Positions 14,895 to 43,296 of a stretch of 64,000 nucleotides of DNA are shown here, one piece after another. The DNA is taken from NCBI GenBank assembly GCA_001002285.1, contig LCLX01000001.1:30-64029 (forward strand), in the 5' to 3' direction. Source of the stretch: Microgenomates group bacterium GW2011_GWC1_46_15 (lineage in GTDB: Bacteria > Patescibacteriota > Microgenomatia > UBA1400 > UBA12028). The notes beneath the pieces were generated by a model. The model saw only the letters and a list, made by a program, of their open reading frames with translations. It did not search any database and had not been told where the DNA came from. Both the position numbers and the translations under genes were made by a program. Position 1 is the first letter of the stretch. Every line of letters begins with the position of its first letter.

Positions 14895-14939
14895 TCCTTT
14901 CCCACATTTCTAGACCACAATGGTAAAAAGATGTTGATA

Positions 14940-18314: not shown

Positions 18315-19337
18315 ATGTATGATGTTCAACACCGCGCCCCACGCCTACAATTTAATGCAATCCAATCAACAACACAAAACTATCTCGAAATCTACGACGT
18401 TACAAACGATCTCGTCATTTTGCGCGATGGAACCGTGGCGCTTCTCCTGACGACAAACTCGCTCAACTTTGGACTGCTTTCCGAAGAAGAACAGGACTCG
18501 ATCATTTACACGTACGCCGGCTTATTAAACTCACTCTCTTTCCCCATTGAAATCGTGATTCGGTCGCAGAAAAAAGATATTTCCGTGTATCTTCATTATG
18601 TTGAAGAACTTGAACAAAAAAATCCGATGCCAATTCGCAAAACGCAGATCCGCCGGTACCGCGAGTTTATTCAGGAGTTGGTAAAAGAACGGAATATTTT
18701 AGACAAGAAATTTTATATCGCAATTCCATTTGCGGGAGCGTCGCTATCGCTTTCCGGCGCGATTCCGAACATTAAGAAAGAAAAAACGTTTTCTTTAGAT
18801 AAAGCGTATGTTCTCGAAAAAGCAAAAACAGACCTGGAGCCCAAACGCGACCACTTGATCGCGCAGTTTGCCCGCATCGGACTATATGCCCGCCAGCTCA
18901 CAACGCAGGAAATTATTCATCTCATGTACACGATTTATAATCCTGGGACGTCTGAAGGACAGAGAATGACGGATACGGGAAGTTACACAACGCCGCTTGT
19001 TGAGGCGAGCTTGCAAGGAGTGATGAGTCAGCCAGCGCTGCAGTCGTTCACAAAAGATGCGGATATGGGTGAAAAAGTAGCACCGACACCAGCGCCACAA
19101 GCGCAAACCCCAGCACAAACGCCCCCACCAACTCAATTGGAAGAAAAACCCATCGTGCAACAATCCGCGCAACCACCCCAATCAGAAAAAACGAGTGGAA
19201 CTGTCCGCATTATTCCTCCAGGAGAGCCGGTAAAAATTCAGCCACCGACAATGCCAATAACGCCAACGATGCCAGGAGCATCAGTACCAACACCATCAAC
19301 GCTCCAGAATTTACAAACTCCAACACCGGTGGTTTAA
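18315..19337 (+). CDS. hypothetical protein with P/Q/T-rich C-terminal tail, divergent from VirB4-like gene
   Basis: 340 aa; N-terminal globular part, low-complexity PTPAPQAQTPAQTPPPTQ tail; T4SS context. Confidence 0.35.
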   Translation: MYDVQHRAPRLQFNAIQSTTQNYLEIYDVTNDLVILRDGTVALLLTTNSLNFGLLSEEEQDSIIYTYAGLLNSLSFPIEIVIRSQKKDISVYLHYVEELEQKNPMPIRKTQIRRYREFIQELVKERNILDKKFYIAIPFAGASLSLSGAIPNIKKEKTFSLDKAYVLEKAKTDLEPKRDHLIAQFARIGLYARQLTTQEIIHLMYTIYNPGTSEGQRMTDTGSYTTPLVEASLQGVMSQPALQSFTKDADMGEKVAPTPAPQAQTPAQTPPPTQLEEKPIVQQSAQPPQSEKTSGTVRIIPPGEPVKIQPPTMPITPTMPGASVPTPSTLQNLQTPTPVV

Positions 19338-21434: not shown

Positions 21435-24400
21435 TTCGACCGAACTTCTCCATCCATTATTGGTGGTTCCTGGACGATTTCATCACGGTATGCCCCGTGA
21501 ACCTCATAGTGTACGTGTGGCCCCGTTGAATGGCCGCTACTATTTACCGTTCCAATAACGTCTCCAATAGAAACAGAAGCCTCTGTCCCCGCACCAAAGT
21601 TACCAAAATCGTTGAGGTGTCCAAAGAAAAACACGAGATCTTTTCCGTTTATTGTTGACTTAAGGATGACGTGGTTTCCGTACCCACAATCTATGCCGAA
21701 TGCACTAGCAATACTACAAATTCCAAATCCTTCTGGGTAAAATGTTGCAACTCCGGGATACGGAGCGTATACCGGAGCACCCGTTGGCGCACCAATGTCA
21801 ATCGCTTGTCCACCAAGTCCTGGTCCTACACCACACACATTTTGCCCGGAAAGCCCCGTTTCACACCCATGATGAACGCCGTGAGTGCCACCACCGAGCC
21901 GTGAAGAATAAACATCGAGTCCATTCACTTGTCCGCTCGTTGGCCAGCATCCCTGATTACCAACTCCAGTTGCGTATATTGCAGAACGAATACTGCCTTC
22001 TACTGATGTTTGAAATGCCAACTGCCGTTGTTGTTGTGTAAGTGCCCCCCATCCCAAAACTCCAAGCCCTGTTGTGGCGACAACCGCTCCGGAGAATCCG
22101 CCGACCGTTCCAAGCCCCGCGCTTAACTGAGTCATAAAAGATGAAAATCCGGCACCAAGCCCAGTGAAAAATTTTGTTAGTCCACCTAGGGCCCATTTTC
22201 CAACAGCAGCAAAAAGATTTTTTGTTACTCCAAGGAGACCCGAAAGATTTGCGACTCCTTGTGAAAAAAACCACTTTGCTCCTTGCCAAATTGCCCATCC
22301 AATAAGACCCAAAATAAGTGCGATCGCGGCCATAATACCGGCAAGGATCGCGAGCAACAACTTGAGTTGTTTCCCAGTCATCTCAACAAGCTTGTTGTAT
22401 GCGTCTTGAATAATTGGGCCAAGAACTGGAATTTGCGAAGCAATTTGAATAACTTGGTTGAGTTTTTCAATGGCGGCAGCGGCTTCAGGTCCAAGAACGC
22501 CAGCGGCTAATATCGTAAGCACAAATTGACCCAACTGCCGGTCAAGATTGTTTTTATCCTGCGCGCCAGTAAACATTGGCGAGTTTTGTCCGGCAGAAAA
22601 TCCCTCACCCATGAATTCGCTCAACGCGCTTCCGGCCTCAAACAGCCCATCGTCACCGATATTTTGAAGATACAAAAACTGCACAAAATCCTGGCTCACG
22701 CCGTACTGCATAAAAAGCTGGTACAGCTGAGTTGTTTTCTCTTTTTGATGAAGCTGTTTCCATACCGTTGCAGAAAACGGTGTCGTAGGCGCGAATTGAT
22801 TCACTAAGTATTCCTGTATGCCTTGTGGTTGGCCAAGAAAATTCTGTATATGTTGATTGAGGGTTCCGCGGAAACGAGCACCGGCCTGATTTGGCTGAGG
22901 GGAAGTGCCATACAATCCCGCGGCAACCTCCTTAAATCCGAACGCCTGCAGCGCTTTTTCAACACCTAGCGTTACTTGCGGCCGCACCCCGTGTGTGGGA
23001 TCGGCATACAATACGCCGTTTTGATGCGTGAGCGCATAGATTTGTTGGCGGTGCGCGGAAATATAATGCAAAAAGAATGACTGCCAAGAGAATGCTTGCA
23101 CTCCGGCGGCTTTTGCGCGTGCGATCTCGGCCTCAAGATTTCTTTGTATCGTTGGACTTTGAAAAAGATCACTAAACAACCGTTCAAACGCTTTTTCATC
23201 CATCCGATCAACATTTGCTCGTGTAATTGCCAACGCTTTAAGTCGCAAAAGTACACCGTTAATATCTTGTTCGGGCACATGAATAGTTGTTAAAAATGTG
23301 CGGAGGTTTTTTTCAAGTGAGTCGGTATATGCCTCAGACGAGCGGATATCGGAGCCCGCTTTTTGATTAAACTCCGCGATTTTTTGAAGATTTGCTTCAA
23401 GCTCTTTACCATTTTCTTGATTTTTTAAAACGCCGCTGAATGTTGCGTTATCAATATTCTGTGCGATGGTTGCGGGTGTAATGGAGGCAAACTGCTGGGC
23501 AAACCGCTTTTTTGCCTGCACCTTGTTTTCAAACAATTTTCCATTTGTGGAGTTGAGCGCATCGAATAGCGCGTCTTGGAATGATCTCTTTGTTTGCGCG
23601 CGAATCATGATATCGCGGAACAACCGAAGTCGGGCGCCCGTTTTTCCAACATCTTCTGGCCGGAGTTTTTGCAGTTCAAGCAAAATAAATGGATATAACT
23701 CGTCGCGCGACTTAAAAAATGTGTTACGGAATACCACAAACTGCTGGTCATTTACACCATACGAAGCAGCGATACCACGAAGCACCGCCTCACGGATGCG
23801 TTCAGCCTCTTTGAGATACGCAATGTTAAACTTGTCGACGTCTTGCGCACGCGCATACAGGTCTTTATCAATAGGCTGGGGCGGTTTTTGTTCCTCCTGT
23901 TTCTTTTTCTCCTTTTCCTCCTTCTCTTTCTTCTTGTCTTTTTCGATGATGGGAATTGGAATACCAGCACCACCGCTAGTTTCTCCTTGTGCCTTCACAA
24001 CTTCTTCTGCAGTCTCTTCCTCTTTTTTGAGTTCTTCTATCGCCCCAATGGGCAAAACGATTGACTGCGCTTCTTCCAAACACGCAACCAGCAACGCCGC
24101 ATCATCAATGTCATTCTGCTTGCGCGCCGGCGTATATCCCTCAAGTTTTACCGCGCCAAATCGCGCGCTTTGCGCCCGTTCATTAAATACTTGCTGCTTA
24201 TGAAAAATGTCGAGATCAAACTCTTCGGGAATTTGCAGGCGAATGGTAATCAGCAAACTCAAGAGTTTATTGAGTGAAATATGATATCCGCCATCACTGT
24301 CCGGTGTTACGGCGAGCTCGGCGAGCAGAACATCGCGCCCCGCATTTGTCTGAAGCTCATGCAAGAGATGTGCCGCATTCTCAATATCGCGCTGAGAAAA

Positions 24401-24508
24401 CGGAACTTTTTGCAAGCGGTACACAACACTCTGAAGCTTGTGATTTGTAAGCCGTACTTCTGGAAAAAACTTTCGCGCAGCGTCTGCCATATCCGTATTG
24501 TATCTCAA
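21401..24508 (-). CDS. large multi-TM protein with C-terminal M23 (LytM-like) peptidoglycan peptidase domain; probable T4SS cell-wall hydrolase (PrgK/VirB1 functional analogue)
   Basis: 1035 aa; K/E-rich coiled region, Gly-rich TM bundle, C-terminal GYGNHVILKS...GHL...GTVNSSGHSTGPHVHYEV (M23 HxxxD/HxH motifs). Confidence 0.7.
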   Translation of the reverse strand: MRYNTDMADAARKFFPEVRLTNHKLQSVVYRLQKVPFSQRDIENAAHLLHELQTNAGRDVLLAELAVTPDSDGGYHISLNKLLSLLITIRLQIPEEFDLDIFHKQQVFNERAQSARFGAVKLEGYTPARKQNDIDDAALLVACLEEAQSIVLPIGAIEELKKEEETAEEVVKAQGETSGGAGIPIPIIEKDKKKEKEEKEKKKQEEQKPPQPIDKDLYARAQDVDKFNIAYLKEAERIREAVLRGIAASYGVNDQQFVVFRNTFFKSRDELYPFILLELQKLRPEDVGKTGARLRLFRDIMIRAQTKRSFQDALFDALNSTNGKLFENKVQAKKRFAQQFASITPATIAQNIDNATFSGVLKNQENGKELEANLQKIAEFNQKAGSDIRSSEAYTDSLEKNLRTFLTTIHVPEQDINGVLLRLKALAITRANVDRMDEKAFERLFSDLFQSPTIQRNLEAEIARAKAAGVQAFSWQSFFLHYISAHRQQIYALTHQNGVLYADPTHGVRPQVTLGVEKALQAFGFKEVAAGLYGTSPQPNQAGARFRGTLNQHIQNFLGQPQGIQEYLVNQFAPTTPFSATVWKQLHQKEKTTQLYQLFMQYGVSQDFVQFLYLQNIGDDGLFEAGSALSEFMGEGFSAGQNSPMFTGAQDKNNLDRQLGQFVLTILAAGVLGPEAAAAIEKLNQVIQIASQIPVLGPIIQDAYNKLVEMTGKQLKLLLAILAGIMAAIALILGLIGWAIWQGAKWFFSQGVANLSGLLGVTKNLFAAVGKWALGGLTKFFTGLGAGFSSFMTQLSAGLGTVGGFSGAVVATTGLGVLGWGALTQQQRQLAFQTSVEGSIRSAIYATGVGNQGCWPTSGQVNGLDVYSSRLGGGTHGVHHGCETGLSGQNVCGVGPGLGGQAIDIGAPTGAPVYAPYPGVATFYPEGFGICSIASAFGIDCGYGNHVILKSTINGKDLVFFFGHLNDFGNFGAGTEASVSIGDVIGTVNSSGHSTGPHVHYEVHGAYRDEIVQEPPIMDGEVRSKCDPGYNTSTL

Positions 24509-24514
24509 ACATGA

Positions 24515-26293
24515 TTACGAGATTGAAGAAAAAGAGGCGGACATCACCCGATTGAGAGGAAGAAGGGTGGATTGAATAAGCTCGCTCGCTCCAACGCGGC
24601 CAAACTGAAAAAAATCTGTTGCGGTTGGATCAGAAAACTCCCCGGCCCCCGTTGTTGTGCGCGAATCATCAGCAAAACTATTCTTTTCCCACGTCAGCTC
24701 GCACCGCCAACACACACCGCACTCACCAACAAAGTCTGTGTTTCCGCACGCGACACATGTTCCTTGTTTGAAGTTCTGGTCAAACCGTTCTTTGCCGATC
24801 AACTGCGCAATTTGATCCTTAGTAAACACGTGGCCACGGTCTTTAATCGCGGTAAACAACTCAGCCGAACCCATGCTCGGCAACCCAAGCCCCTGCATAA
24901 ATGAGGTGCTGTTTGCCATTTCGGTAAACCGCGTGAGTCCGCCAAAACTTCCAACCGTACAATCTAAACCAGAGTACATGCGGGATAAAACATTTCCCAT
25001 AGAAGGAGCCTTTTCAACCAAAGAGAGAAGATGAGTATTGCGTTGTTTCTGTAGTTGAATATCTGTCGTGTGGGCAGAGCGGTTTTCTGGATTAAAACTT
25101 TCTGTATATTGTGCGAGTGCTGCTTGAGTATCAAATGTTTTTTTCTTGTGCAGAAACGTATTCATGACGATGTCGAGGGCAACACGATTGAGGACGAACT
25201 CCCGCGTGTGATCAATGATGCCGTGCGCGCGGAGACGTTCAAACCGCGCATATTCTTCCAATAATACCGTCGAAATATACTCTGTGGCAGATTGAATAAC
25301 TGGAGACAGTTCAGAAAACTGACCAAGCGCAGTTTGTTGTTCTATAAAAAGTTGTTTGAATTTTTCATGCGATTGGAGCTGGGCAATCATCTCGCCAAAA
25401 AACTCCATCGCTCCTAAGGGCTGATAGTGTGAATCAACTGTAAAGACGGTATTCATAATATCGTTTTCGGTTGGCCGCACTGCAGAATCTTTTTGAGCAA
25501 ACTGCAGTGCCCGCACTTGTTCTTCATGCCCAAGCCGATTAAGGTATTGATGAATCAATACAACTCGCTGTTTTCCTTCAGGAAGCCAGGGAACATATAC
25601 CTCTTGCCACACATTCCAAAATGCTGTTTTCCCGGGATACACATCAAGATTTTGTGGAAGAACAAAAAAATGTTTGGGCCCAACAAGTGGCCGGCGCGTT
25701 TCATCTACATGTTTTTGCAAATCAATGTCATGAGGGAGGGCGCCTTCATATGGGACAAGGCCCGCCGGGATTGTCTCTCCATCTACATATTCTAGAAGCG
25801 CATGTGGACATATAGTATTGAACTCCTGAATAACTGTAGCAACACGTTCAACCTGTTTTTTTTCCAGAACAAACCGCGCGCGATATTCCGCATTTGCCGC
25901 GTGTTCAACCGCCCGCGCGCTTAAATCACGCAAATCATCATTTCCGTGATCCGGACTCAGGAGGCGCAACGCCCCATCTTCTTGTGGTTCGATAGTAAGA
26001 TAGCGCTGATCGTATACGGGAAAGCCAAGAATTTCTTTGAGTGCGTCGGTAAGTTGACGGCCGACAATTGCAGAAAGTTCAAACTTGATCTTTTCATATC
26101 TTTGTTGCGGTGACTCATGTTCGTATTTTTTGAAAAGATTGGGAAGAATGTAATCAAACACGTGGGAAAGGTTGAAGTGAGCGGCAACTTCGTGATTATT
26201 TTGTTGTCGTTTGGGCTGTTCAAATAGTTCCGATTGTCCAAATTGGTTGCGTTGATCAAACTGAATAGACTCAATAGTAGTGGTGCGCGCCAT
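24515..26293 (-). CDS. hypothetical protein with C-terminal zinc-ribbon (CxxC...CxxC)
   Basis: 592 aa; CVACGNTDFVGECGVCWRCE near C-terminus; first gene of minus-strand T4SS-like operon. Confidence 0.4.
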   Translation of the reverse strand: MARTTTIESIQFDQRNQFGQSELFEQPKRQQNNHEVAAHFNLSHVFDYILPNLFKKYEHESPQQRYEKIKFELSAIVGRQLTDALKEILGFPVYDQRYLTIEPQEDGALRLLSPDHGNDDLRDLSARAVEHAANAEYRARFVLEKKQVERVATVIQEFNTICPHALLEYVDGETIPAGLVPYEGALPHDIDLQKHVDETRRPLVGPKHFFVLPQNLDVYPGKTAFWNVWQEVYVPWLPEGKQRVVLIHQYLNRLGHEEQVRALQFAQKDSAVRPTENDIMNTVFTVDSHYQPLGAMEFFGEMIAQLQSHEKFKQLFIEQQTALGQFSELSPVIQSATEYISTVLLEEYARFERLRAHGIIDHTREFVLNRVALDIVMNTFLHKKKTFDTQAALAQYTESFNPENRSAHTTDIQLQKQRNTHLLSLVEKAPSMGNVLSRMYSGLDCTVGSFGGLTRFTEMANSTSFMQGLGLPSMGSAELFTAIKDRGHVFTKDQIAQLIGKERFDQNFKQGTCVACGNTDFVGECGVCWRCELTWEKNSFADDSRTTTGAGEFSDPTATDFFQFGRVGASELIQSTLLPLNRVMSASFSSIS

Positions 26294-26296
26294 AAA

Positions 26297-26321
26297 AACC
26301 CCTCTTGAGGAGGGGATAATG
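26297..26321 (-). terminator. rho-independent terminator-like hairpin (CCCCTCCTCAAGAGGGG + T5 on minus strand)
   Basis: Perfect GC-rich stem followed by TTTTT on the minus strand, immediately 5' of the 592-aa gene start. Confidence 0.45.
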
Positions 26322-26607
26322 TTTCAACCAAGCGCACTCGCGTGCGTGTGCATCTCCCTCGCTCGGAGATCAACACAATGTCTCGTTCCTGACTTTCGAG
26401 GCTAGGGGTTGCGTTGTCGCTTTTACCACCAGCGCTCGATTCACAGTTGCGGCACAGTCCGCGATTTGCACGCGGTTCCGAGTAAGAAAGAGTGTAACAT
26501 GAAAAAAGATTTGCGAAAAGTCTTACAACTCAGCCCCTCAACTTAGCCTTTCAACTCAGCCTCGCAATGTAGCCCCTTCGACTCTTGTGTGGCCACCGTA
26601 AACTACC

Positions 26608-26652
26608 ACCATAAACACACTTGACTCTATTCCCAATTGCACATATAATCAT
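26608..26652 (+). promoter_or_regulatory. consensus sigma70 promoter (TTGACT-17-TATAAT) with overlapping palindrome TGCACATATAATCATGTGCATATG (putative AbiEi autoregulatory operator)
   Basis: -35 at 26608-26613, -10 at 26631-26636, inverted repeat spanning the -10 and start codon of abiEi. Confidence 0.6.
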
Positions 26653-27303
26653 GTGCATATGGAAATAAACTATAAATCCTTGATTTCAGAAAGTACTACC
26701 CCCTTTTTTACCAGACAAAATCTAAAAATACTTTTAGGACGCAATCGACGCACAGTGGACTATCGCATCAAGTCTTTAATCAAAGACGGAATATTGGTCG
26801 CGGTGAAATCCGGATTTTATATCAATAATGTCTTGTATAAAAGCACTTCTACCCCCAAAGACATGGTTCTCTATATAGGTGGGATATTGGTGCCACAAAG
26901 TTATGTTTCTCTGGAATATGCGTTGTCTTTTTATGGTTTTTTGGCTGAGCAGGTATACACCGTCACATATATCACAACGCAAAAGACCAGAAAGTTTCAA
27001 AATAACCTTTTCAGTTTCTCGTACCGGAACATAAAACCGGCGCTGTATTGGGGATATATGAAACGCCCTTTTGGAGACTTGTCTTATCAGATGGCCAGTC
27101 CCGCCAAAGCAATGTTTGATTTTCTCTATTTGACTCCAGCGGGGACTGATCAAGCAACCAGAAATTTGTTGTTTGACTCACGATTCAATTGGGGAGCGTT
27201 CTCCGCCAAAGATAAAAAGGAATTTCAAGAGATTATAGAAAAATCCACATCAAAAAAGATGGCAAATATACTGAAATACCTGACACAGGAGAATGTTATA
27301 TGA
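26653..27303 (+). CDS. AbiEi-like antitoxin/transcriptional regulator (type IV TA / abortive infection)
   Basis: 216 aa; N-terminal wHTH-like region; 4-nt overlap with downstream AbiEii gene. Confidence 0.55.
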   Translation: MHMEINYKSLISESTTPFFTRQNLKILLGRNRRTVDYRIKSLIKDGILVAVKSGFYINNVLYKSTSTPKDMVLYIGGILVPQSYVSLEYALSFYGFLAEQVYTVTYITTQKTRKFQNNLFSFSYRNIKPALYWGYMKRPFGDLSYQMASPAKAMFDFLYLTPAGTDQATRNLLFDSRFNWGAFSAKDKKEFQEIIEKSTSKKMANILKYLTQENVI

Positions 27304-28052
27304 ACAACCAAGGCATGTATCAAAGGAATGTCATCAAAGAACGTTTGCAGGATGAAATTCTACGTTTTATCTACAACAACGATGTGTATAGCGAATTAAT
27401 TTTTACGGGGGGGACGTGTCTACGTAAAGTATATGGTCTTAATCGCTTGTCCGAAGATCTGGATTTTGATTTTTCTCCCGATGTCTCATTTGACACTAAG
27501 ATATTTGCCAAAGACGTAAGGACATATCTATCGGCGGATACCAGAATATCCGGCAATAATAATACAGTGTTTGTCAAATTCCCCGACAACATTTTTGTAC
27601 GATGTGACTTTTCCCCGATTATCTTAGGGGAATATCAAATACAAAAGAGCTTGATTATGGCTGACAATTGTCAATTTTTTGTTAATGCATATGATTTACC
27701 CACTCTTTATGCCAACAAAATAGCGGCTTTTTTAAGTAGAAACTTTTTTAAAGGAAAGTTTCAAAAAATTCCTTTCAAAGGCCGCGACATTTATGATTTG
27801 TATTGGCTCCTTCAGCTTTCGGCAAAAACAGGATACACCCTCAAACCGAACATCCCACGATTAATGGCCCTTTTGGGAAAAGATTCTTTGCTGGAAATAA
27901 AGAATTTTGTCAAAGACAAGATATGTGCAGTAGATCCGCAGTTTGTTTACAATGACCTGTCCCCGCTTATTGAATCTAAAGAGTTTTTGGATCAGTTTTT
28001 ACAAGATTTTGGGAAAACAATTGTCAATCAACTAGACTATGTTTTAACATAA
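27300..28052 (+). CDS. AbiEii/AbiGii nucleotidyltransferase toxin (DUF1814)
   Basis: LIFTGGTCLRKVYGLNRLSEDLDFDF matches GGTAL...R.SEDIDF signature of AbiEii. Confidence 0.75.
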   Translation: MNNQGMYQRNVIKERLQDEILRFIYNNDVYSELIFTGGTCLRKVYGLNRLSEDLDFDFSPDVSFDTKIFAKDVRTYLSADTRISGNNNTVFVKFPDNIFVRCDFSPIILGEYQIQKSLIMADNCQFFVNAYDLPTLYANKIAAFLSRNFFKGKFQKIPFKGRDIYDLYWLLQLSAKTGYTLKPNIPRLMALLGKDSLLEIKNFVKDKICAVDPQFVYNDLSPLIESKEFLDQFLQDFGKTIVNQLDYVLT

Positions 28053-28100
28053 AAGTAATACATATTGACAAAGTATTACTTTATATAGTAGTATTACCAC

Positions 28101-28331
28101 ATGCACACAGCAACAATAACACAAAAAGGGCAAATAACGATTCCCTTGGTCTTGAGGGAAGCCTTTGGATTAAGAGCGTACGGTAAAGCCAGGCTGGAAC
28201 AAGGAGATGGTTTCATCAAGGTATACGCGCAGGAGGACATTTTGGATTTAGTTGATACATTTGTTCCCAAAGTGAAAAAACCACTCATGAAAACCCGCGA
28301 GGCGTTTGAAAAGAAATATACGAGGTTTTAA
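28101..28331 (+). CDS. AbrB/SpoVT-type antitoxin (VapB-like)
   Basis: 76 aa; ITQKGQITIPLVLREAFGL swapped-hairpin motif; overlaps PIN gene start (ATGA). Confidence 0.65.
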   Translation: MHTATITQKGQITIPLVLREAFGLRAYGKARLEQGDGFIKVYAQEDILDLVDTFVPKVKKPLMKTREAFEKKYTRF

Positions 28332-28750
28332 TGATCTATTTTATAGATACAAACATTTTTTTGAGAGTTCTCATACGGGAAAACGAAAGCGCGTTTCAGC
28401 AGAGTAAAGCCTTTTTAGAGATGGTAAAACGCAATGTATATGACGCGGTAACAAGCACGATGGTGATTTCCGAAATAGTGTGGACTCTGGGCTCCTATTA
28501 CAAATTTCCAAAGAAAAAAGTACTACGGACAATACAAGGAATACTTCATCTCAGCGGGCTAAAAATCGTGGACGAATACGATATAAACAAATCTCTTGCA
28601 CTCTATGAATCCCACACATGTAAATACATAGACGCCATGATCGCAGGAATGCCGGGGGTACAGTCGGGCGCCTGGAACATCGTTTCCTATGATAAGGAGT
28701 TTGACAAATTGGGTGTCAAAAGAGTGGTGCCCGCAAAATTGTTGAAATAG
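28331..28750 (+). CDS. PIN-domain ribonuclease toxin (VapC-like)
   Basis: 139 aa; N-terminal FIDTNIF acidic motif, PIN-like spacing of D/E residues. Confidence 0.75.
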   Translation: MIYFIDTNIFLRVLIRENESAFQQSKAFLEMVKRNVYDAVTSTMVISEIVWTLGSYYKFPKKKVLRTIQGILHLSGLKIVDEYDINKSLALYESHTCKYIDAMIAGMPGVQSGAWNIVSYDKEFDKLGVKRVVPAKLLK

Positions 28751-28756
28751 TATTGA

Positions 28757-30169
28757 TTGTTATTCCCCTCCTTTTTCGTTAGTATGGAAGCTACTATGAG
28801 TGATGGAAACTTTGAGGGCGGAGCTCCGTCCACATCAGCACCAATAGCTCCGGTAGTAGATACGCCGGCGGTGCAGCCACCTCCATCCAATGAGGTCTCT
28901 GTAGAACAAGAGGCAACCAAGCGGTGGACTCCACCAAATCTTGATGACATTCCAGAGATGAAAAACGCAAAAAAACTTGGAGACAAAGAAACAAGCACAG
29001 ACTATGCGGCGTTCAAAAAAAGAGATAAGGATGGGAGCCTCATTCACGTTGATTTATCTGGAATGACCGACGAACAGAAAGAAAAAATCGATGGAATAGA
29101 CACATACTACGAGTTTGGGGGACAAACCGCGTATCATGATTTTGCAACATGGGCGGCCTCCGAAAAAGTTGGATTGTATGAGGAAAGGAAAAGCGAAGGC
29201 GGCCAAACAATAGGATTTCTTCCAAAAGAAGGAGTAAGTGTTAAAGACGCGTTTGATAGATTTCTCATTGAATCAGATAAAGGAAAAGCTATCGTCGCTT
29301 CAAAAACGACAGAAGTAGAAAAACAACGCGTGCGCCAAGAAGCAGATGGAGAATTTCTTGAGGGGATTGAAAAAGCGGTCGAAGACAGGAATTTGGGGGA
29401 GTTTACGCGACTGTATAGAGAAAGAATACAAAACGTCCTTAGAGATGGGGGGTTGAGCGATCAAGAAGTTGAAGAAATTTTTTCTTCGCAGAACGCATTT
29501 GTCCAAACGCTGAGAGAAATTGCAAGTAAAGGTGATCAAGATACAGAGGAAAAACCAACTGATGATGGAGTAAAAAAAGAACCCAAAACCCCTCTTGAAA
29601 AACTACTAGCGGGGGGAGATGAAGGAAGGCTAAAGAAACTACGAAAAAAACTTGGAGAACTTGATTTTTCTGCAGCGACAAACTTTGGAGAATCAATAGC
29701 CGCCGCAATTGAAAATGAAATGGACCTAGGAATACTTATTGATTATTTCTGCACAGGAAGGTATTACGACAAAATTGCGAAGAGCTTGGGATATAAATCA
29801 AAAGAAGAACTTGGGACAAAAGGAATTGGTCCCTCGGAAATTGAAGACTATACAAAAAGAGATCCCAAAAAAGAACTTCTCCTTTTAGCCAAGGGATTGG
29901 AAGAGGCGAGAATCATATCGGAAGAAGAATATAGAACCTATCTTGAGAGCGATTCCGCAGAAATATTAAAAAGTGAAGAATTTAGAAAAAAATTATCCAA
30001 TATTTCGAAAGAAAATAAACATAAATTTGATGAAGGGATTGTGAAAGAAATGAATAGGCTTGGACATGAAATCTCAAGAGAAGGGTTTGCATATTTAATG
30101 ATGATTCCTGAAAATGTAAAAAATCTTGGAGGAAATCAAACAAAAAACGAAGAACATGAGCAAGAGTAA
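28757..30169 (+). CDS. hypothetical acidic protein (ORFan), AT-rich island
   Basis: 470 aa, E/K-rich, no signal peptide or known motif; distinctly lower GC than flanks. Confidence 0.4.
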   Translation: MLFPSFFVSMEATMSDGNFEGGAPSTSAPIAPVVDTPAVQPPPSNEVSVEQEATKRWTPPNLDDIPEMKNAKKLGDKETSTDYAAFKKRDKDGSLIHVDLSGMTDEQKEKIDGIDTYYEFGGQTAYHDFATWAASEKVGLYEERKSEGGQTIGFLPKEGVSVKDAFDRFLIESDKGKAIVASKTTEVEKQRVRQEADGEFLEGIEKAVEDRNLGEFTRLYRERIQNVLRDGGLSDQEVEEIFSSQNAFVQTLREIASKGDQDTEEKPTDDGVKKEPKTPLEKLLAGGDEGRLKKLRKKLGELDFSAATNFGESIAAAIENEMDLGILIDYFCTGRYYDKIAKSLGYKSKEELGTKGIGPSEIEDYTKRDPKKELLLLAKGLEEARIISEEEYRTYLESDSAEILKSEEFRKKLSNISKENKHKFDEGIVKEMNRLGHEISREGFAYLMMIPENVKNLGGNQTKNEEHEQE

Positions 30170-30191
30170 TATTGCATGGTAAAATAACGGT

Positions 30192-32738
30192 ATGAATCCA
30201 GGATCGGGCTTATCAGGTTTTGAGAGAGGGAGATATTTTGATGCTCCAAAAGATGCTGGTGGCAACGTTATTCAACCCACCGCGTTAAACGAAATTAAAC
30301 TAGATGGCCAGCATCCCTACGTTGCCGTAGATCTTTGGGAACAGTATTCTCTTGATCGGCTTCGAGAAAAAGAATCTTTCATTAGAGAGGCATTAATTTT
30401 ATTAAATGCGGCGAAATCTCATCCAAAAATAACACCAGAAGATTTGGCGGCAATAGAACAGCTATCGAAACGAATTACAGACATTATTGCGAGACTTCCG
30501 GAAAAAGAAAAAGGAACAGACACAATAAAAAAATATTTACTTCGAAGAAAATCAATAGACCAAGTAACCTACGAGAGACTTACAACAACAGAGGCTGGTG
30601 CACGAGCAATTGCGAGAATGCTTATTGACGAAATGCATGTGCAAATAGGGATTATCCAAGACTCAGACAAAATTTATATTAACTCGGATATTGCATCTTG
30701 GAAATTTGAAATACAATCAGGACTAGAAACAGATCTCAAGTCCTTAGGAGAGTCTCTTCAGTCTTTAAGTCCAAGCCACGAAAAAATAGGAGAGCAGTTT
30801 CTCACAGATCTTTTTGCCATTTCGAAGTTAACAAAACTATGTAATGGATTAGAGAGTACACAAAAGAATGCTAAAGGAACGGCGGAGTATCTTGATAGTA
30901 TTAAAGTTCATCTCACAGACGGACAGAAAAAAAGAATAATTGCCATAGCTGGAAAGGAATATTGCGAGAAAGATGGAAGGTATTTAGCGCAGGATGTTCA
31001 TGATGCCTTAGTAATGTATGAGGCTTTATGTGCTCCAGAAATAATGACTATTGAAACGGAAGATGGAACAATTATTCATGGATATCCTGTTAAAACTAAA
31101 TATAATGCATTTCCCCAAAGTATCGCTTCAAATATAGAAATAAGATACGCAATTAGAAGAGCAATAGGTGCGATTCGTGGAGAAAATCCCACAGAACTTG
31201 GGCAATTGGGACGCGACTTGACTGTAGCTCTTGCAGAAAAAGATCCAAAAGAAAAAAGAAGAAAGATAAAAAAACTTTTAGAAGAGAATATTTCTTTTTA
31301 TAAGGAAAAGGCAAAAACAGATGAAAAAGCAAAAATGGACGATGCGGGAACAACAAAACATTCTTGGTTTGCGGAACTAATGGCGATTAATTATCTTGAA
31401 GGAGAAGTATATTCTGCGCATTATGATGCTGGACAAATAAAAAAGGACTCAAGCGGACAACCTATTCTTGGAAGCAGTGGCTATCCAATCATTGATCGCT
31501 TCGGTGGATGCGCCGCAACGTATAAGTTTGCCGTTGTTACTAATGCGGCGGCCGGCATGGCGAAATATAGTATTCCCGGAGAAGCGGAGCGAGGAGACCC
31601 AGGACCACCAATCTTAAGAAATATTTTAGTTGCTCCACTACTTCCATTAGATGAATACCTTTTTATTGAGGAAGGGAAGCGTGGGACAGCGAGCAGATTA
31701 ATGGGAATGACTTTACGTGAAGCAATTTTTAATACAACCTCTGCAGAAGAATTAGAACAGGTTTGGAATAGTTCCGCAGAGAATCTTATTAACGCAGATG
31801 AACAAGTTCAGGGGGCCATACATGAGGGGTGGGCATTTTGGGAGATGATGGTGAAGGGTATGGGAATTAAATTTTCTAAGATTGCCCACGTTGCTGAATG
31901 GTCAGAGGGACTTGACATAGAAATAGATCCATCCATAGAAACCAAATTAAAGGGGGTGTCGAGCGGAATAGAATACTGGCTAATAAGGGATAATATTAGA
32001 AATAAAAATTCTATTCAAAAACTTTTTGTGAAAGAATTTGGATCAGGAACCGATTGGAGAAAAGAATACATAAGATACAAAAAGTTCGAGGCAGTTGTAG
32101 TTGGGATAAAAAGGAGCGGGGGAGATGTTGATTTAGCGGTTCAGCAATTTCAAAGAAATGAAGGATTAACACAAAATATTGTGGACACATACAAAAAAAT
32201 ATACAACGAATTGCGCAAAATTGCCTCACAGGACTTTGATTTGGCGGAGGGTTGGGATAAGGGATCTCCTGGCGAAAATGATGAATATTTTATGAGATTT
32301 TCTGAGCGCGTGTTCACAAGAATTTTTGGTATTGATATAAAACAGACCAAGGAAGGAAAGTATGGAGAATTTGTTAAAGAAATTTTCAAAAATGACGTAA
32401 CTGATTGGATAAGGACAATGAAAAAATTTGTTATAGGGCTTCTTGTTATAGGACAAATACAACTCAATAAAGAGGCAGCAAACATTCAAAAAGATGATGT
32501 GCTCGCTATAAAAGCAATGTTAAATTATGATTTTTGGCACCATGAGCAAGAACGGCTTTCCGTGAAAATAGTGAGAGCGATGCGGGGAATTAGTGGTAAA
32601 ACAATTGAATTTACCGGAGTTGGTCTGTTTGAGCAAGATGAAGTTAATGCAATTATGAAAGATGCCGGAGTTCCGCGTGGAGTCATTGTTGACGCAGAGC
32701 ACGTGTGGAAAAGAGTACAGCAAATCAAACACGGTTAA
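30192..32738 (+). CDS. hypothetical large protein (ORFan), AT-rich island
   Basis: 848 aa, no recognisable catalytic motif; 23-nt spacing from upstream ORFan (operonic). Confidence 0.4.
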   Translation: MNPGSGLSGFERGRYFDAPKDAGGNVIQPTALNEIKLDGQHPYVAVDLWEQYSLDRLREKESFIREALILLNAAKSHPKITPEDLAAIEQLSKRITDIIARLPEKEKGTDTIKKYLLRRKSIDQVTYERLTTTEAGARAIARMLIDEMHVQIGIIQDSDKIYINSDIASWKFEIQSGLETDLKSLGESLQSLSPSHEKIGEQFLTDLFAISKLTKLCNGLESTQKNAKGTAEYLDSIKVHLTDGQKKRIIAIAGKEYCEKDGRYLAQDVHDALVMYEALCAPEIMTIETEDGTIIHGYPVKTKYNAFPQSIASNIEIRYAIRRAIGAIRGENPTELGQLGRDLTVALAEKDPKEKRRKIKKLLEENISFYKEKAKTDEKAKMDDAGTTKHSWFAELMAINYLEGEVYSAHYDAGQIKKDSSGQPILGSSGYPIIDRFGGCAATYKFAVVTNAAAGMAKYSIPGEAERGDPGPPILRNILVAPLLPLDEYLFIEEGKRGTASRLMGMTLREAIFNTTSAEELEQVWNSSAENLINADEQVQGAIHEGWAFWEMMVKGMGIKFSKIAHVAEWSEGLDIEIDPSIETKLKGVSSGIEYWLIRDNIRNKNSIQKLFVKEFGSGTDWRKEYIRYKKFEAVVVGIKRSGGDVDLAVQQFQRNEGLTQNIVDTYKKIYNELRKIASQDFDLAEGWDKGSPGENDEYFMRFSERVFTRIFGIDIKQTKEGKYGEFVKEIFKNDVTDWIRTMKKFVIGLLVIGQIQLNKEAANIQKDDVLAIKAMLNYDFWHHEQERLSVKIVRAMRGISGKTIEFTGVGLFEQDEVNAIMKDAGVPRGVIVDAEHVWKRVQQIKHG

Positions 32739-32749
32739 TTACTTCTGTC

Positions 32750-34531
32750 TTAAACTGGAAATCCCTCATCACCTTTTACCGATTCGTTCCTACTAGGCTG
32801 GAGATTTGAGATAGTTTCTTTACGCTTCTTTGTTTCAGGTGTCTCTGGCACTTTTTCTGGCGTGAGAACCTGACCAATTTGCTCCGCTATTTTAATATTT
32901 GTAATCTGCTGGTTAGCGAACTTCGCAACTTTATCAACTTGTGGTGCCACGTATTTTATTGTAGCAGGGGCAACAGCCCCAACGCCAGTTCCTATAAGTC
33001 CTCCAGCGAGCATTTTGCCAACACCCTGTCCACGTTGCGAATATGCACCAACAGCTGCCCCCCCAATAGCACCAAGAGAGGAAGTTGCTCCAAGAGAAAG
33101 CGCTTCTGGGAGGATTTTTCCCATTCCTGGTAATGTGGGACCAATTCCAGGGACCAGTTGTCCACCCTTCCATCCTTTACCCAGATTTTCTCCAATCTTC
33201 GGCAACCACTCATCCATCAATCCCTTCGCGCCAAGCCACTTTTTGCTCATCTCAACAGCCTCGGGGATAAGCATGAGAATGCCGAGGGCAATCAGACCAG
33301 ACGCAGCGCCGGAAAATCCATCACCCACTGTAATTTGTGGAGCCTGGAACCCACCGGTATCACCCGCGCGGTATCCAATACTTCCTTTTCCGCTTCCGCC
33401 AAGCGCGAGTGCAAGGAAAATCATCACGATCACAACGGGGAACGGCAATAATGTCGCAGCAAGGTTTTTTATCCATTGCACAAAATCTCCGCCGTCTTTG
33501 AGCGCACCAAGCAGCAACTGGAACGGCGCAAAAATCACCGAAATAATGAATGTTACATAACTTTTCAATAATTCAAAAAAGGTTTTGATGACTGCAAAAA
33601 ACATGGCAACTGCGATAATGACATACCCAACGACACCGACTGATTTTCCAACGATGTTTGATGCAAAATCTCCAGTATTTGCGAAAAGGTTTTCCGCAAT
33701 ATCTCCAATTGCTTTTGCCGCACCACCAACAACACTCCCCTTTACTCCGCTGTCACCGATACCAAAAATAAGACCGAGACCATTTGTTACAATATCTCTT
33801 GATAGTGCGATGTCAATCAATGTAAGATTATCTCCAAACTTCGATGTATCAATCAAATTTGCAAACACCCCCGTGATGAAGTAAATCACAAGATACATGA
33901 TGTCGATCATGAAGCCGGCGATGGCATACGAAAACGTAATCAGTAGCAGCGTAATCACGAGGTTGGGGAGCGCGTTACTAATGGTAATCACGGTTTGGCC
34001 GTGCAAATTCTTGCGGAACATAATCATGAACCCAATCGCGATAAACACGAGGACAAACACAACGTACGAAAGATCGCGGAACGCTTTCCACACAGGCAAG
34101 ATGGGGTTCAAGCTCTTGAATCCGATGCCCTGCGCGTACGCCTGTGAAACAAGCGGAGAGTGTTGAAGAAGATCAGCAAGCCACAACTCGCCACTCGCAG
34201 GCGGGTTTTTAATCATCATCGCGATAGCATTTCCCATCTCAGGGACAACGCCCTTGACAACGTACTGGCCTTTTTCATCTTGCACGCCCAGCAACATTGC
34301 CCCAATGCCGCCAACTTGTGAGCCGGTGGTGTAGAGGGTGGCCGACTCAAGAGGATACGTTCCGGTTCTTGCGCTGTTGATGATGGTTTGGTCAAACGTC
34401 TGTTTCGAGGGGACAGCTTCGGCCTGCGCGTACGCAATGGGGGTGGCAAAAAACACAACAGCAAAAACGCCCAAAAACACCGCAAATATTGCGCAAAAAA
34501 ACCGGCGGCCAAACTTCCTCATATGTTTCAC
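32750..34531 (-). CDS. polytopic membrane protein, VirB6/TrbL-like (topology- and context-based)
   Basis: 593 aa; signal peptide, periplasmic domain, about 7 TM helices, Gly-rich C-terminal region. Confidence 0.4.
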   Translation of the reverse strand: MKHMRKFGRRFFCAIFAVFLGVFAVVFFATPIAYAQAEAVPSKQTFDQTIINSARTGTYPLESATLYTTGSQVGGIGAMLLGVQDEKGQYVVKGVVPEMGNAIAMMIKNPPASGELWLADLLQHSPLVSQAYAQGIGFKSLNPILPVWKAFRDLSYVVFVLVFIAIGFMIMFRKNLHGQTVITISNALPNLVITLLLITFSYAIAGFMIDIMYLVIYFITGVFANLIDTSKFGDNLTLIDIALSRDIVTNGLGLIFGIGDSGVKGSVVGGAAKAIGDIAENLFANTGDFASNIVGKSVGVVGYVIIAVAMFFAVIKTFFELLKSYVTFIISVIFAPFQLLLGALKDGGDFVQWIKNLAATLLPFPVVIVMIFLALALGGSGKGSIGYRAGDTGGFQAPQITVGDGFSGAASGLIALGILMLIPEAVEMSKKWLGAKGLMDEWLPKIGENLGKGWKGGQLVPGIGPTLPGMGKILPEALSLGATSSLGAIGGAAVGAYSQRGQGVGKMLAGGLIGTGVGAVAPATIKYVAPQVDKVAKFANQQITNIKIAEQIGQVLTPEKVPETPETKKRKETISNLQPSRNESVKGDEGFPV

Positions 34532-34611: not shown

Positions 34612-34952
34612 TGATGGTCATATACAACATGAAACCAAAAACAATCCTATTTCCAGAGTTATTACGGTTTGAATGGGATCGGGGAAATGAAAGAAAAAAT
34701 AAAGAGAAACATGGAGTTGAACAAAAAGAATGTGAAGAAATTTTCTTCAACGATCCACTCATTCATCTTGATATTAAACACTCGATTACGGAAACACGCC
34801 TTTTTGCTTTGGGAAAAACACGCGAAGGGAGATATTTGTGCCTTATTTTTACGGTAAGAAAGGAATGTGTGCGGGTGATTTCTGCTCGAGATCAAAGTAA
34901 GGAAGAGCGATCAGCATATACAACACATAAAAGAAAGGGAAAGAAGAGGTAA
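34612..34952 (+). CDS. brnT: BrnT ribonuclease toxin (DUF497)
   Basis: FEWDRGNERKNKEKHGVEQKECEEIFFNDP...ISARDQSKEER matches BrnT motif (FEWD..K...N..KHGV; ISAR). Confidence 0.75.
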
Positions 34953-34957: not shown

Positions 34958-35236
34958 ATGAAAAAAATGAAAAAATCTATTCCGGTCTTCAAAAACGAGC
35001 GCGATGAAGCGAGATTTTGGTTGTCGCACGATACGACCCAATATATTGATTGGAGTAACGCCGCGCGCGCCGAGTTTCCCAACCTCAAACCAACCACGAA
35101 AACGATTACGTTGCGCCTTCCCATGATGTTGTTGAACAGCATTAAGAAGTTGGCAAACAAAAAAGACGTGCCGTATCAATCGCTCATGAAGGTGTTTCTT
35201 GATGAAAAAGTCAGAGAAGAAATGCTCACACCATGA
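34958..35236 (+). CDS. brnA: BrnA antitoxin
   Basis: 92 aa; ITLRLPMMLLNSIKKLANKKDVPYQSLMKVFL RHH-like C-terminus typical of BrnA; 5 nt after brnT. Confidence 0.7.
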   Translation: MKKMKKSIPVFKNERDEARFWLSHDTTQYIDWSNAARAEFPNLKPTTKTITLRLPMMLLNSIKKLANKKDVPYQSLMKVFLDEKVREEMLTP

Positions 35237-38714: not shown

Positions 38715-39149
38715 TTACGGTTGCACGATCCTAAAAATCGTGATTTTTTCACCTACCCCCGTGAACACACTAATAAAGTTAATAATAATCCAACCGAGAA
38801 GGGCAACGACAATACCGGTAATGGCCATCGTAAGCGTTTTCTTTGCCGCATCAGTTGATTTTGGATTTCCACCAGAGGTGAGATACAAAAACGAACCAAT
38901 CAGCAACATCACAAACGCGGCAATGCCAATTGCGGTCATTGCAATACCAAGAATGTTTTGAACGACACACTCAGCGCCTTGTAGCGTGGCAACATCAGCG
39001 GTTCCTTCCGGAACTGTTTCAGTAGAGACACATCCGGACTGGATATCTTTCCATGACTTTGTTACTTGGGCGTGTGCCGGAGTTGGAGATGCTAAAACAG
39101 TGGCGAAGCAAAATACTGCAACAACGGAAGAAAAAAGAAACTTTCTCAT
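38715..39149 (-). CDS. T4SS pilin-like (VirB2/TrbC-like) protein with extended Cys-containing N-terminal domain (ORF track extends start to 39179)
   Basis: Signal peptide MRKFLFSSVVAVFCFATVLA; C-terminal LIGSFLYLTSGGNPKSTDAAKKTLTMAITGIVVALLGWIIINF matches paralog motif. Confidence 0.5.
   Translation of the reverse strand: MRKFLFSSVVAVFCFATVLASPTPAHAQVTKSWKDIQSGCVSTETVPEGTADVATLQGAECVVQNILGIAMTAIGIAAFVMLLIGSFLYLTSGGNPKSTDAAKKTLTMAITGIVVALLGWIIINFISVFTGVGEKITIFRIVQP
38725..38750 (+). terminator. rho-independent terminator (CACGAT-7 nt loop-ATCGTG + ATTTTTT)
   Basis: Perfect 6-bp stem plus T-run 15 nt after stop of the 1153-aa gene. Confidence 0.5.
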
Positions 39150-39183
39150 GGGGTCAATTGTAGCATACACGAAAACCAAAAGA

Positions 39184-39213
39184 CCTCCCTTGCGGGAGGC
39201 CTTCCAATTTCAA
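39184..39213 (-). terminator. rho-independent terminator (CCTCCCGCAAGGGAGG + TCTTTTGGTTTT on minus strand)
   Basis: Hairpin plus U-rich tail downstream of pilin gene 39258-39593. Confidence 0.5.
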
Positions 39214-39257
39214 ATCCCCTTTCAGAGGATTCTCTCTGTACACGGAAAAATTAAATT

Positions 39258-39593
39258 TTAGTACAACGGTTTAATGTTACTCAGATTGAAAATATCAATG
39301 CCGAACAAGAACGCGACAACCTGCATAAGCGCGTAGGACGCTGCAACAATGGCAAGGCCAACAAGCGCCGCGGTGATTTTTCCTCGAGCTGCTTCTGTCT
39401 TTCCCTTATCTCCGCCGGAAGTAATCCACTCAATGCCTCCGAGCACGAGATATGCGAACACGAGAATCGCGGCAACAATCAATGCGATTCCAAGGACGCG
39501 GGAAAACAACAAACCCAGATCAGTAATCAAAAACCCATTAGCCCTTGGGTCAATTGTAATAGGTGGCTTTGCCTGTGCAATCAACGCGAACAT
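39258..39593 (-). CDS. T4SS pilin-like small membrane protein (paralog 2)
   Basis: LVLGGIEWITSGGDKGKTEAARGKITAALVGLAIVAASYAL; two TM helices. Confidence 0.55.
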   Translation of the reverse strand: MFALIAQAKPPITIDPRANGFLITDLGLLFSRVLGIALIVAAILVFAYLVLGGIEWITSGGDKGKTEAARGKITAALVGLAIVAASYALMQVVAFLFGIDIFNLSNIKPLY

Positions 39594-39637
39594 ATTCCTC
39601 CTTTATTCACACGTATACCTGTATTGTACGGCGTGTT

Positions 39638-39949
39638 TTATAGTTTGACAATATCAATCCCAAACAGATACTGCAAGAGCCCAAAAAATGCAAACGATGC
39701 TGCGGTAATTGTTAACCCAATGATAGCGTTCGTGATGTCCTGGCGCGCGGCATCGAGTTTTCCTTTGTCTCCGCCGGCCGTTGTCCACTTTAGGCCGCCA
39801 AGAACGAGAAATGCAAACGTCGCAATGCCAGCCAATATTAAGCCAAAACCAGCAAATCTTCCAATAAATATACCCAAATCAAACTGCGTGTTCGGTGAAA
39901 CTTTTGCGAGTTCACCCCCGATGTCTACCGTTGCTTGAAAAAGTGTCAT
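39638..39949 (-). CDS. T4SS pilin-like small membrane protein (paralog 3)
   Basis: LVLGGLKWTTAGGDKGKLDAARQDITNAIIGLTITAASFAF. Confidence 0.55.
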   Translation of the reverse strand: MTLFQATVDIGGELAKVSPNTQFDLGIFIGRFAGFGLILAGIATFAFLVLGGLKWTTAGGDKGKLDAARQDITNAIIGLTITAASFAFFGLLQYLFGIDIVKL

Positions 39950-39983
39950 AAAAGTTTCTTTCTATTTTGTCGTTCCACCATTA

Positions 39984-40337
39984 TTAATTAAGCACACTAA
40001 AATCTGGCTTCAATAAATTAATGCCAAGCGGCCCACTCAGGAATGTGCTGATTGCCGCGACAGAACTCAACACAACAAATCCGATAACCGCTTGAATGAT
40101 GCGCTCTTTTGCTTGCTCAATCTTTCCTTTTTCTCCACCCGCGGTAATCCAGTAGAATCCGCCAACGAGAAGATACAAAATAATGCCGAGACCACCCACA
40201 ATAATGGCGGTCTGCCAGAGGACAGCAATATATTTTGCCAGTACGCCAGCTGCCGCGGCTGGAGTACTTGCATTCGACACATCGCCCGGTAACGCGGGGT
40301 TTGTAATTTGCGTGACAAGTGTTGACAAAATTATCAT
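39984..40337 (-). CDS. T4SS pilin-like small membrane protein (paralog 4)
   Basis: LLVGGFYWITAGGEKGKIEQAKERIIQAVIGFVVLSSVAAI. Confidence 0.55.
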   Translation of the reverse strand: MIILSTLVTQITNPALPGDVSNASTPAAAAGVLAKYIAVLWQTAIIVGGLGIILYLLVGGFYWITAGGEKGKIEQAKERIIQAVIGFVVLSSVAAISTFLSGPLGINLLKPDFSVLN

Positions 40338-40711: not shown

Positions 40712-40717
40712 ATTAAT

Positions 40718-41140: not shown

Positions 41141-41161
41141 AATAAGTTCTTCTATCGTGCG

Positions 41162-42674: not shown

Positions 42675-42691
42675 AATTTTTACATAGCGCT

Positions 42692-43240: not shown

Positions 43241-43296
43241 GGTGTTGGTGTACGATGGGAGTACAATACAGGCTGTCCATTTCGTACGGAAAAAGT

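Follow-up and report, generated by a model that had tools for sequence, protein, structure and literature searches.

A 64,000-nt stretch of the genome of Microgenomates group bacterium GW2011_GWC1_46_15 (contig LCLX01000001.1, positions 30 to 64,029; hereafter, the window) contains between about 26.6 and 32.7 kb the genes of an AbiE module, a VapBC toxin-antitoxin (TA) pair and two large open reading frames (ORFs), ORF470 and ORF848. All of them lie within a type IV secretion system (T4SS) locus, between a gene for a 592-aa protein and a gene for a VirB6-like membrane protein. The initial annotation had interpreted this AT-rich stretch as one inserted island splitting the secretion locus and carrying a candidate defence or effector system. 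Our analysis describes a composite region instead: the island measures 2.5 kb rather than 6 kb and consists of the AbiE and VapBC genes, whereas the two ORFs are ancestral, syntenic residents of the T4SS locus and not cargo of the cassette. The TA and abortive infection (Abi) modules are members of known families; the pair is a very rare but real family that belongs to the Patescibacteria T4SS locus. We are highly confident of this composite picture, a mobile cassette beside a resident pair, when it is taken without any mechanism of cargo export.

The mobile segment (26289..28836) comprises a riboswitch leader, the genes for AbiEi, AbiEii, VapB and VapC, and the 5' end of ORF470, of which it includes the first ~40 nt counted from the ATG start codon (~80 nt from the alternative TTG). 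The AbiEi antitoxin and transcriptional regulator (26653..27303, plus strand) matches PADLOC PDLC02241 over its full length (E 6.1e-41) and NCBIfam TAA_AbiEi weakly. The start of the AbiEii nucleotidyltransferase toxin gene (27300..28052, plus strand; PF08843, 70.5 bits with a cut-off of 22.5; PADLOC AbiEii, E 7.9e-30) overlaps the AbiEi stop by 4 nt (27300-27303). These genes are followed by a putative VapB-type antitoxin of 76 aa with an AbrB/SpoVT fold (28101..28331, plus strand) and a VapC PIN-domain toxin (28331..28750, plus strand; PF01850, 43.2 bits, cut-off 23.6). The TIGR01439 match of the antitoxin, 23.4 bits, is below the cut-off of 28.3; its size and the overlap of its stop with the vapC start fit VapB. 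Thus Pfam, PADLOC and NCBIfam bear out the AbiE, VapBC and BrnTA assignments made earlier, the VapB match being weak. A promoter-like sequence, TTGACT-17-TATAAT, precedes abiE on the plus strand (26621-26649), and a vapBC promoter is predicted at 28065-28094. Four tandem 13-nt units, AGCCyyTCAACTy (26519..26570, plus strand), separate the riboswitch promoter from that of abiE and may possibly constitute an operator, perhaps for AbiEi.

The segment 26289-28836 (2550 nt) is 96.5% identical at the nucleotide level to a metagenome contig, L019 (the compared loci are denoted here by L numbers). The flanking proteins are much less similar: comparison with the L019 counterparts at 4206-5927 (592-like) and 103-1704 (ORF470-like) gives overall identities of 47% and 26%, respectively. 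Within the 592-aa protein, identity rises from 20-55% over the N-terminal 440 aa to 75-97% over the C-terminal 150 aa; for ORF470 the values are 10-42%, despite the 96.5% identity of the adjoining DNA. The only other alignable backbone of L019 corresponds to positions 24354-24952 of the window, with 82% nucleotide identity. Among the compared loci, AbiE and VapBC are carried only by the window and L019; in L001, L003, L005 and L008, which lack them, the intergenic distance from the 592-like gene to the pair is 125-267 nt, versus 2.5 kb in the window. The high identity to L019, combined with the absence from these four syntenic loci, therefore defines a 2.5-kb mobile TA/Abi cassette with boundaries at about 26289 and 28836. 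A repeat search found no convincing direct or inverted repeats of the kind that flank an integrated element, and no integrase or transposase was matched among the ORFs called in 26.3-35.3 kb; the likeliest route of transfer would be homologous exchange between related populations.

It could be argued that AbiE and VapBC are a vertically inherited backbone of two close strains, and that the N-terminus of the 592-aa protein and ORF470 are hypervariable flanks produced by recombination or diversifying selection. The two genomes are indeed related, as seen from the 75-97% identical C-terminal 150 aa of the 592-aa protein and from the 82% identical stretch at 24354-24952, and the hypervariability falls in exactly the two genes that flank the block. 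However, the 96.5% identity of the cassette is clearly above that of the other backbone stretch, the cassette is missing from four other syntenic loci, and its GC content at the first and second codon positions (GC1 and GC2) is atypical for the genome, so that we consider vertical inheritance unlikely.

Homologues of AbiEi and AbiEii with 35-41% identity were also seen in L031 (499-2058 and 2024-3512) and in L054, beside a 25-mer identical to the core of the B12 aptamer described below. The ~1.5 kb that follows contains no ORF of at least 60 aa and no Rfam match, which could mean either that the genetic code differs there or that a large stretch is non-coding.

The AT-rich dip at about 26.6-32.7 kb is real. 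In 500-nt windows GC is 0.36-0.40 over ~26.5-32.7 kb, versus 0.45-0.50 on either side, with a small bump to 0.45 inside the dip at 28.5-29.2 kb; the 2-kb bins at 26-32 kb are the three lowest of the window (0.384-0.406, most others being 0.44-0.49 and the window mean 0.454). Compared with 52 other ORFs of the window, the five genes of the stretch that encode at least 100 aa, a limit that leaves VapB out, have z(GC) of -1.8 to -3.5. The dip is nevertheless heterogeneous in its codon-position basis and has two different causes. The AbiE and VapBC genes are low in GC1 and GC2 and normal in third-position GC (GC3, 0.38-0.49), whereas ORF470 and ORF848 are low in GC3 (0.31 and 0.29; z -2.0 and -2.3) and normal to low in GC1 and GC2. 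The homologue of ORF848 has the lowest or nearly the lowest GC3 of its own locus in L001, L003, L004 and L005. Since the low GC3 recurs in homologues from other genomes, the AT-richness of the pair is a family trait and not a mark of recent acquisition. The gene with the lowest GC outside the studied region is found at 54604-55308 (minus strand; GC 0.355, z -3.8).

ORF470 (plus strand) extends over 28796..30169 when read from the ATG (457 aa), or begins at a TTG at 28757 (470 aa). Its product has a net charge of -26 and a Pro/Ala/Ser-rich N-terminus, and is identical to the hypothetical protein DCX25_04260 of a Candidatus Pacebacteria metagenome-assembled genome (MAG; GCA_003484165.1, contig DNDA01000013.1). 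ORF848 (30192..32738, plus strand) converges on the VirB6-like gene, and its product is soluble, with a net charge of -10. Neither protein has a predicted transmembrane (TM) segment, and a Sec signal was not noted in either, although no signal-peptide predictor was run. The earlier view of the two as true orphans is upheld by the absence of significant matches in Pfam, NCBIfam, PADLOC (0 families at E <= 0.01) and PHROG; a match to DUF3837 that arose in the family searches of the pair (17.7 bits) was below the cut-off and was rejected. PDB sequence searches with the ORF848 profile and with ORF470 gave no match, and no copy of the pair was found in plasmid or phage collections. ORF848 has three full-length homologues (43-51% identity) among 5.8 billion clustered proteins, to which a repeated search with the profile added just one fragment; the profile search of 1.84 billion proteins returned 18 representatives, and no relatives were found in the GTDB species representatives. 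The pair is confined to a small clade of the Microgenomatia/Pacebacteria type.

The place of the pair in its locus is fixed. Homologues of both ORF470 and ORF848 occupy the same slot, from the 592-like to the VirB6-like gene, in L001/L002, L003, L004 and L005, loci from which AbiE and VapBC are absent; in L019 an ORF470-like gene lies in the same slot and the contig ends before the position of ORF848. All contigs of the ORF848 family that could be retrieved show the same neighbourhood: on the minus strand VirB4, a TraC-like gene, PrgI, an unnamed gene, an M23 hydrolase and the 592-like gene, then on the plus strand the ORF470 and ORF848 homologues, then on the minus strand the VirB6-like gene, followed by a large surface protein and pilins. 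This layout is kept in L005, where the ORF848 homologue is only 25% identical, the lowest identity among the loci read being ~23%. Thus an island does not split the secretion locus, as had been supposed; the alternation of a minus-strand block, the plus-strand pair, the minus-strand VirB6-like gene, the plus-strand surface protein and the pilins is ancestral in the clade. Nor do the two ORFs form part of an island, since they are syntenic in relatives without TA genes; conserved gene order of this kind had been named beforehand, as part of a broader statement, among the observations contrary to an insertion.

Within this stable framework the pair evolves rapidly. Across the loci the neighbouring genes are 42-80% identical, ORF848 is 25-51% and ORF470 26-31% (31% in L003), which makes ORF470 the fastest-evolving gene of the locus. 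Distant relatives of ORF848 are encoded by one gene each, have 1100-1570 aa and are homologous to it in their C-terminal part; those of 1211-1572 aa in L081-L083 adjoin VirB6-like genes in the same orientation, and the longer contigs, L083 and JGI 3300042731, also show pilin and hydrolase genes. A hidden Markov model (HMM) of ORF470 gave no match in these long single-gene relatives. Further occupants of the slot were found by a GTDB search with the VirB6-like neighbour. In L008, a Paceibacterota MAG, the identical slot beside the same riboswitch holds proteins of 446 aa (net charge -26) and 963 aa, the larger of which has, likewise, the lowest or nearly the lowest GC3 of its locus. In other lineages, L009, L011 and L013 among them, soluble acidic orphans of 1338, 1108 or ~715 aa are present in the slot. 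None of the slot proteins was matched by Pfam, and no similarity to the ORF848 family profile was detected for those of L008 and L009 by HMM and hhalign or for those of L011 and L013 by HMM alone. The slot itself is thus stable, and what fills it changes quickly.

ORF848 itself is constrained at several near-invariant blocks, RFGGxAATYKF, RGDPGPP, HEGWxFW, SSGIEYWLxRDN, GQIQLNKEA and GVGLF. An AlphaFold2 model built from four sequences was unusable (mean predicted local distance difference test score, pLDDT, 49.6), and the alignment of 17 sequences was used instead; the resulting model (pLDDT 81, predicted template modelling score 0.78) is mostly helical with a few small sheets. Its best Foldseek hits have E 0.2 against PDB and 0.18 against BFVD, with no structural relative, so that the predicted fold matches nothing in PDB or in the viral library. 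No nucleoside triphosphatase (NTPase), relaxase, hydrolase or defence signature was found in ORF848. Its identification as a coupling protein (VirD4/TcpA) or a relaxase was considered and rejected, as there are neither NTPase nor HUH motifs and no fold match.

A second unusual feature of the locus is the leader of the operon that diverges from the pair. A cobalamin riboswitch aptamer (26363..26516, minus strand) is predicted in the 5' leader of the 592-aa gene, where it matches RF00174 with 27.7 bits (E 2.4e-5), below the gathering threshold of 31.5. Orthologous leaders score above this threshold, with 32.8-41.7 bits, in L005 (7521-7659), L053 (1412-1553), L062 (5423-5561), L055 (738-866) and L058 (598-678), and the leader is kept in at least ten related T4SS loci, including L001, L003, L005 and L008. 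The element, of ~100 nt, was found by aligning the intergenic regions and is far better conserved than the flanking proteins; eight copies share a P1 stem and a hairpin in which two base pairs show compensatory changes. The aptamer stands 70 nt upstream of the ATG at 26293 in the sense orientation, a promoter-like -35/-10 lies just upstream of it on the minus strand, and a terminator-like hairpin with a U-run (26299-26315) covers the Shine-Dalgarno site of the 592-aa gene, next to its start codon. Elsewhere, riboswitches with the same core precede ordinary B12 genes (DUF4430, CbiX, MetE, BtuF-like and ECF), and the 66 metagenome matches to the core are mostly ordinary B12 riboswitches in other contexts. 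Since copies with the same core control B12 genes, the class of the aptamer appears genuine and it is the T4SS context that is odd. In the literature that we searched there is no report linking cobalamin riboswitches with T4SSs or with Patescibacteria.

The surrounding genes identify the locus as a chromosomal, dnaA-proximal, MPF-FATA-like T4SS of Patescibacteria. The dnaA gene (13320-14894), with dnaN nearby, is 2-5 kb from the T4SS genes, which include virB4 (16360-18288; P-loop_TraG, 93.9 bits) and a TrsD/TraC-like gene (18315-19337). The latter is on the plus strand in the window and co-oriented with virB4 and prgI in L001, L002 and L005, a difference due either to inversion of this one gene or to an artefact of assembly. 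The minus-strand operon is tightly coupled and consists, in order, of the 592-aa gene, a hydrolase gene (1035 aa; Peptidase_M23, 47.4 bits), a 334-aa gene and a PrgI/VirB3-like gene (36 bits). The first of these (24515..26293, minus strand) encodes a soluble, acidic protein with a net charge of -18, no TM segment and no match in Pfam or NCBIfam; a Cys-rich zinc-ribbon-like motif (CxxC...CxxC) at its C-terminus is also present in the divergent version of L001 (6007-7557, minus strand), and positional homologues occur in L003, L008 and L019. The right anchor of the slot is the VirB6-like gene (32750..34531, minus strand), whose polytopic product of 593 aa has eight predicted TM segments. Homologues 32-52% identical to it adjoin the slot in all related loci. 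The topology and the position support the VirB6-like label given initially, and a Pfam match to VirB6 is lacking. A large surface protein of 1153 aa is another gene of the locus, followed by seven divergent VirB2-like pilin genes (38715-41482, minus strand; T4SS_pilin matches in all seven, three of them above the cut-off) and, directly after this array, by PilO/PilN type IV pilus genes (41925-43561, minus strand). Among the T4SS-block genes that were scanned, none was recognised as encoding a relaxase or a coupling protein. Farther along the window, at 56392-56475 (plus strand), ARAGORN predicts a tRNA-Ser with the unusual anticodon ACT beside a tRNA-Ser(TGA).

The cassette is not the only toxin-type insertion in the locus. 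The BrnT gene (34629-34952, plus strand; PF04365, 77.1 bits, cut-off 34.5) and the BrnA gene (34958-35236, plus strand; PF12441, 107.6 bits, cut-off 28) sit in the divergent intergenic region upstream of the start of the VirB6-like gene. In L001 the equivalent region measures 169 nt and carries no gene; in L005 it is occupied by a Fic/MerR gene (14597-15586). A MazE-PIN pair lies beside the M23 hydrolase gene in the JGI 3300042731 locus. Intergenic regions of related T4SS loci are thus recurrent sites of toxin-type genes.

Taken together, the data lead to the following picture. A cassette of ~2.5 kb that is exchanged between genomes has landed among the divergent promoters that separate the T4SS operon from the pair, and BrnTA has likewise colonised the next divergent intergenic region. 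The insertion has presumably parted the pair from the promoter region that it had ancestrally. A gap of 34-46 nt, in which no terminator is predicted, lies between vapC and the start of ORF470, and the pair is probably now co-transcribed from the vapBC promoter (28065-28094), the abiE promoter (26621-26649) or both. ORF848, with its constrained core and unmatched fold, would be the exported substrate, which the T4SS would deliver to the host cell or its surface, and ORF470, hyper-acidic, partly disordered and fastest-evolving, would act as its partner, that is, as a chaperone, an adaptor or a co-substrate. The suggestion made at the outset that the two ORFs could be secreted effectors thus stays viable. 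In its favour, the two proteins are soluble, encoded within the locus, restricted to one lineage, faster-evolving than the machinery and placed in a slot of variable content. The organisms are uncultivated and the function of the pair is one that we infer; the whole statement, a composite region with the pair as a T4SS cargo module, is put forward tentatively, at somewhat less than an even chance. A bolder version, in which the slot would be a cargo module of the Patescibacteria T4SS directed at the host bacterium, with a cobalamin riboswitch gating the secretion machine so that host exploitation is switched on when B12 is scarce, we regard as doubtful.

Several observations weigh against this picture. 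No known T4SS translocation signal was recognised in the proposed cargo, whose conserved C-terminal end is mildly basic. The motifs of ORF848 could also be those of an enzyme that works inside the cell. The apparent variability of the slot in L008, L009 and L011 could stem either from extreme divergence or from non-orthologous replacement. The idea of a fission or fusion relating the pair to the long single proteins draws on size, charge and position, and that of co-transcription with vapBC on spacing. Finally, the strict position amid the machinery genes and the total size of ~1300 aa would fit a component of the machine equally well.

This last point leads to a possible but somewhat less likely reading in which the pair is a lineage-specific cytoplasmic part of the T4SS that is not itself secreted, serving as a substrate receptor or assembly platform in place of the coupling protein or as a regulator of VirB4 or the VirB6-like protein. 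The invariant placement between machinery genes in every related locus, the preservation of the total length whether in one gene or in two, and the strong constraint on the ORF848 motifs all agree with it, as does the lack of a type IV coupling protein among the scanned T4SS-block genes, such proteins being rarely near virB4 in Patescibacteria. At the same time, neither an NTPase motif nor a resemblance in fold to VirD4/TrwB, VirB11 or any other T4SS part was found in ORF848, and the family is tiny (18 representatives in 1.84 billion proteins), whereas the other machinery is recognisable across classes. Moreover, the slot content of L008 is unrecognisable while its neighbours are 27-48% identical, and ORF470 evolves faster than any machinery gene. 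That the pair has nothing to do with secretion, being for instance a cytoplasmic enzyme and its partner trapped in a conserved neighbourhood near the replication origin, seems to us quite improbable. No feature ties the two soluble proteins biochemically to the T4SS, and the conserved charged and aromatic motifs suggest an enzymatic or ligand-binding core; yet every readable homologue adjoins a VirB6-like gene, down to ~23% identity of ORF848, and the distribution is far narrower than would be expected of a housekeeping function.

The idea closest to the initial annotation is that 26.6-32.7 kb is one acquired AT-rich defence island, with the pair as an anti-phage system travelling with AbiE, VapBC and BrnTA. 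GC is low across the stretch, TA/Abi genes are found on both sides of the pair, and AbiE and VapBC are truly mobile. However, the pair is present in at least four related T4SS loci without TA/Abi genes and is kept with or without such modules nearby; the block of high identity to L019 stops at 28836, a short way into ORF470; there is no PADLOC match and there are no plasmid or phage copies; and the low GC3 of the pair is common to its homologues, the cassette and the pair differing in the cause of their composition. We therefore think it very improbable that the region is such an island. Of the views weighed here, we continue to favour the one in which the pair is a cargo module of the T4SS.

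The Patescibacteria T4SSs are near dnaA, have pilin arrays and no relaxase, and rarely have a coupling protein near virB4 (Quinonero-Coronel et al. 2025, PMC12102498). In Saccharibacteria, where one system was tested, the T4SS is essential for epibiotic growth, and the transported substrate is unknown (PMC10633639, PMC12102498, PMC12857230). The conserved yet fast-evolving pair in its fixed slot offers a specific candidate for what this essential and enigmatic system carries, or for an accessory not yet described, and the riboswitch leading the neighbouring operon would place a secretion system under a form of nutritional control that has not been reported. If the cargo and riboswitch readings were true, the long-sought cargo of the Patescibacteria T4SS would be at hand, and auxotrophic epibionts would be seen to tie host exploitation to B12 scarcity. 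For genome scanning the region carries a more general caution: an AT-rich stretch with TA/Abi genes is not one island here, as 2.5 kb of it is mobile and the cargo-looking orphans are resident.

The individual elements may be compared with known systems as follows. The AbiE genes resemble the type IV TA and abortive infection systems in that a gene for an AbiEi-family regulator is followed by an overlapping gene for a PF08843 nucleotidyltransferase; the genes are ordinary, whereas their location, among the divergent promoters of a T4SS locus and beside a riboswitch promoter, is worth attention. VapBC, a PIN toxin with a small, putatively AbrB-type antitoxin, is an ordinary member of its class, and so is BrnTA, a type II TA system in which BrnT (PF04365) is followed by BrnA (PF12441).

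In the cag T4SS of Helicobacter pylori, CagA and its chaperone CagF are an example of a locus-encoded substrate with a partner. By analogy, ORF848 and ORF470 would combine a large soluble protein with a fold of its own and a partner encoded in the secretion locus, both fast-evolving and limited to one lineage; they differ from CagA and CagF in having no sequence or structural similarity to them, in that the recipient would be another bacterium, and in that secretion is proposed here by analogy.

The locus as a whole resembles the MPF-FATA-like T4SS of Patescibacteria (PMC12102498; Wang et al. 2023, PMC10633639) in being chromosomal and beside dnaA and in sharing VirB4, a TrsD/TraC-like protein, PrgI/VirB3, a large M23 hydrolase, a VirB6-like protein and a divergent array of VirB2-like pilins; it differs in the ORF470/ORF848 pair, which is not among the catalogued components, and in the cobalamin riboswitch that leads an operon here. 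The predicted riboswitch, in turn, has the features of RF00174, namely the core GGAACC...GUGCAAAUC...CUGUGCCGCAACUGU...AGUCAGGA with the B12 box, together with the P1 stem and a hairpin that covaries. Its aptamer is compact, the copy in the window falling below the gathering threshold, and, in contrast to the usual members of the family, it leads a T4SS operon rather than genes for B12 transport, B12 synthesis or B12-independent isozymes.

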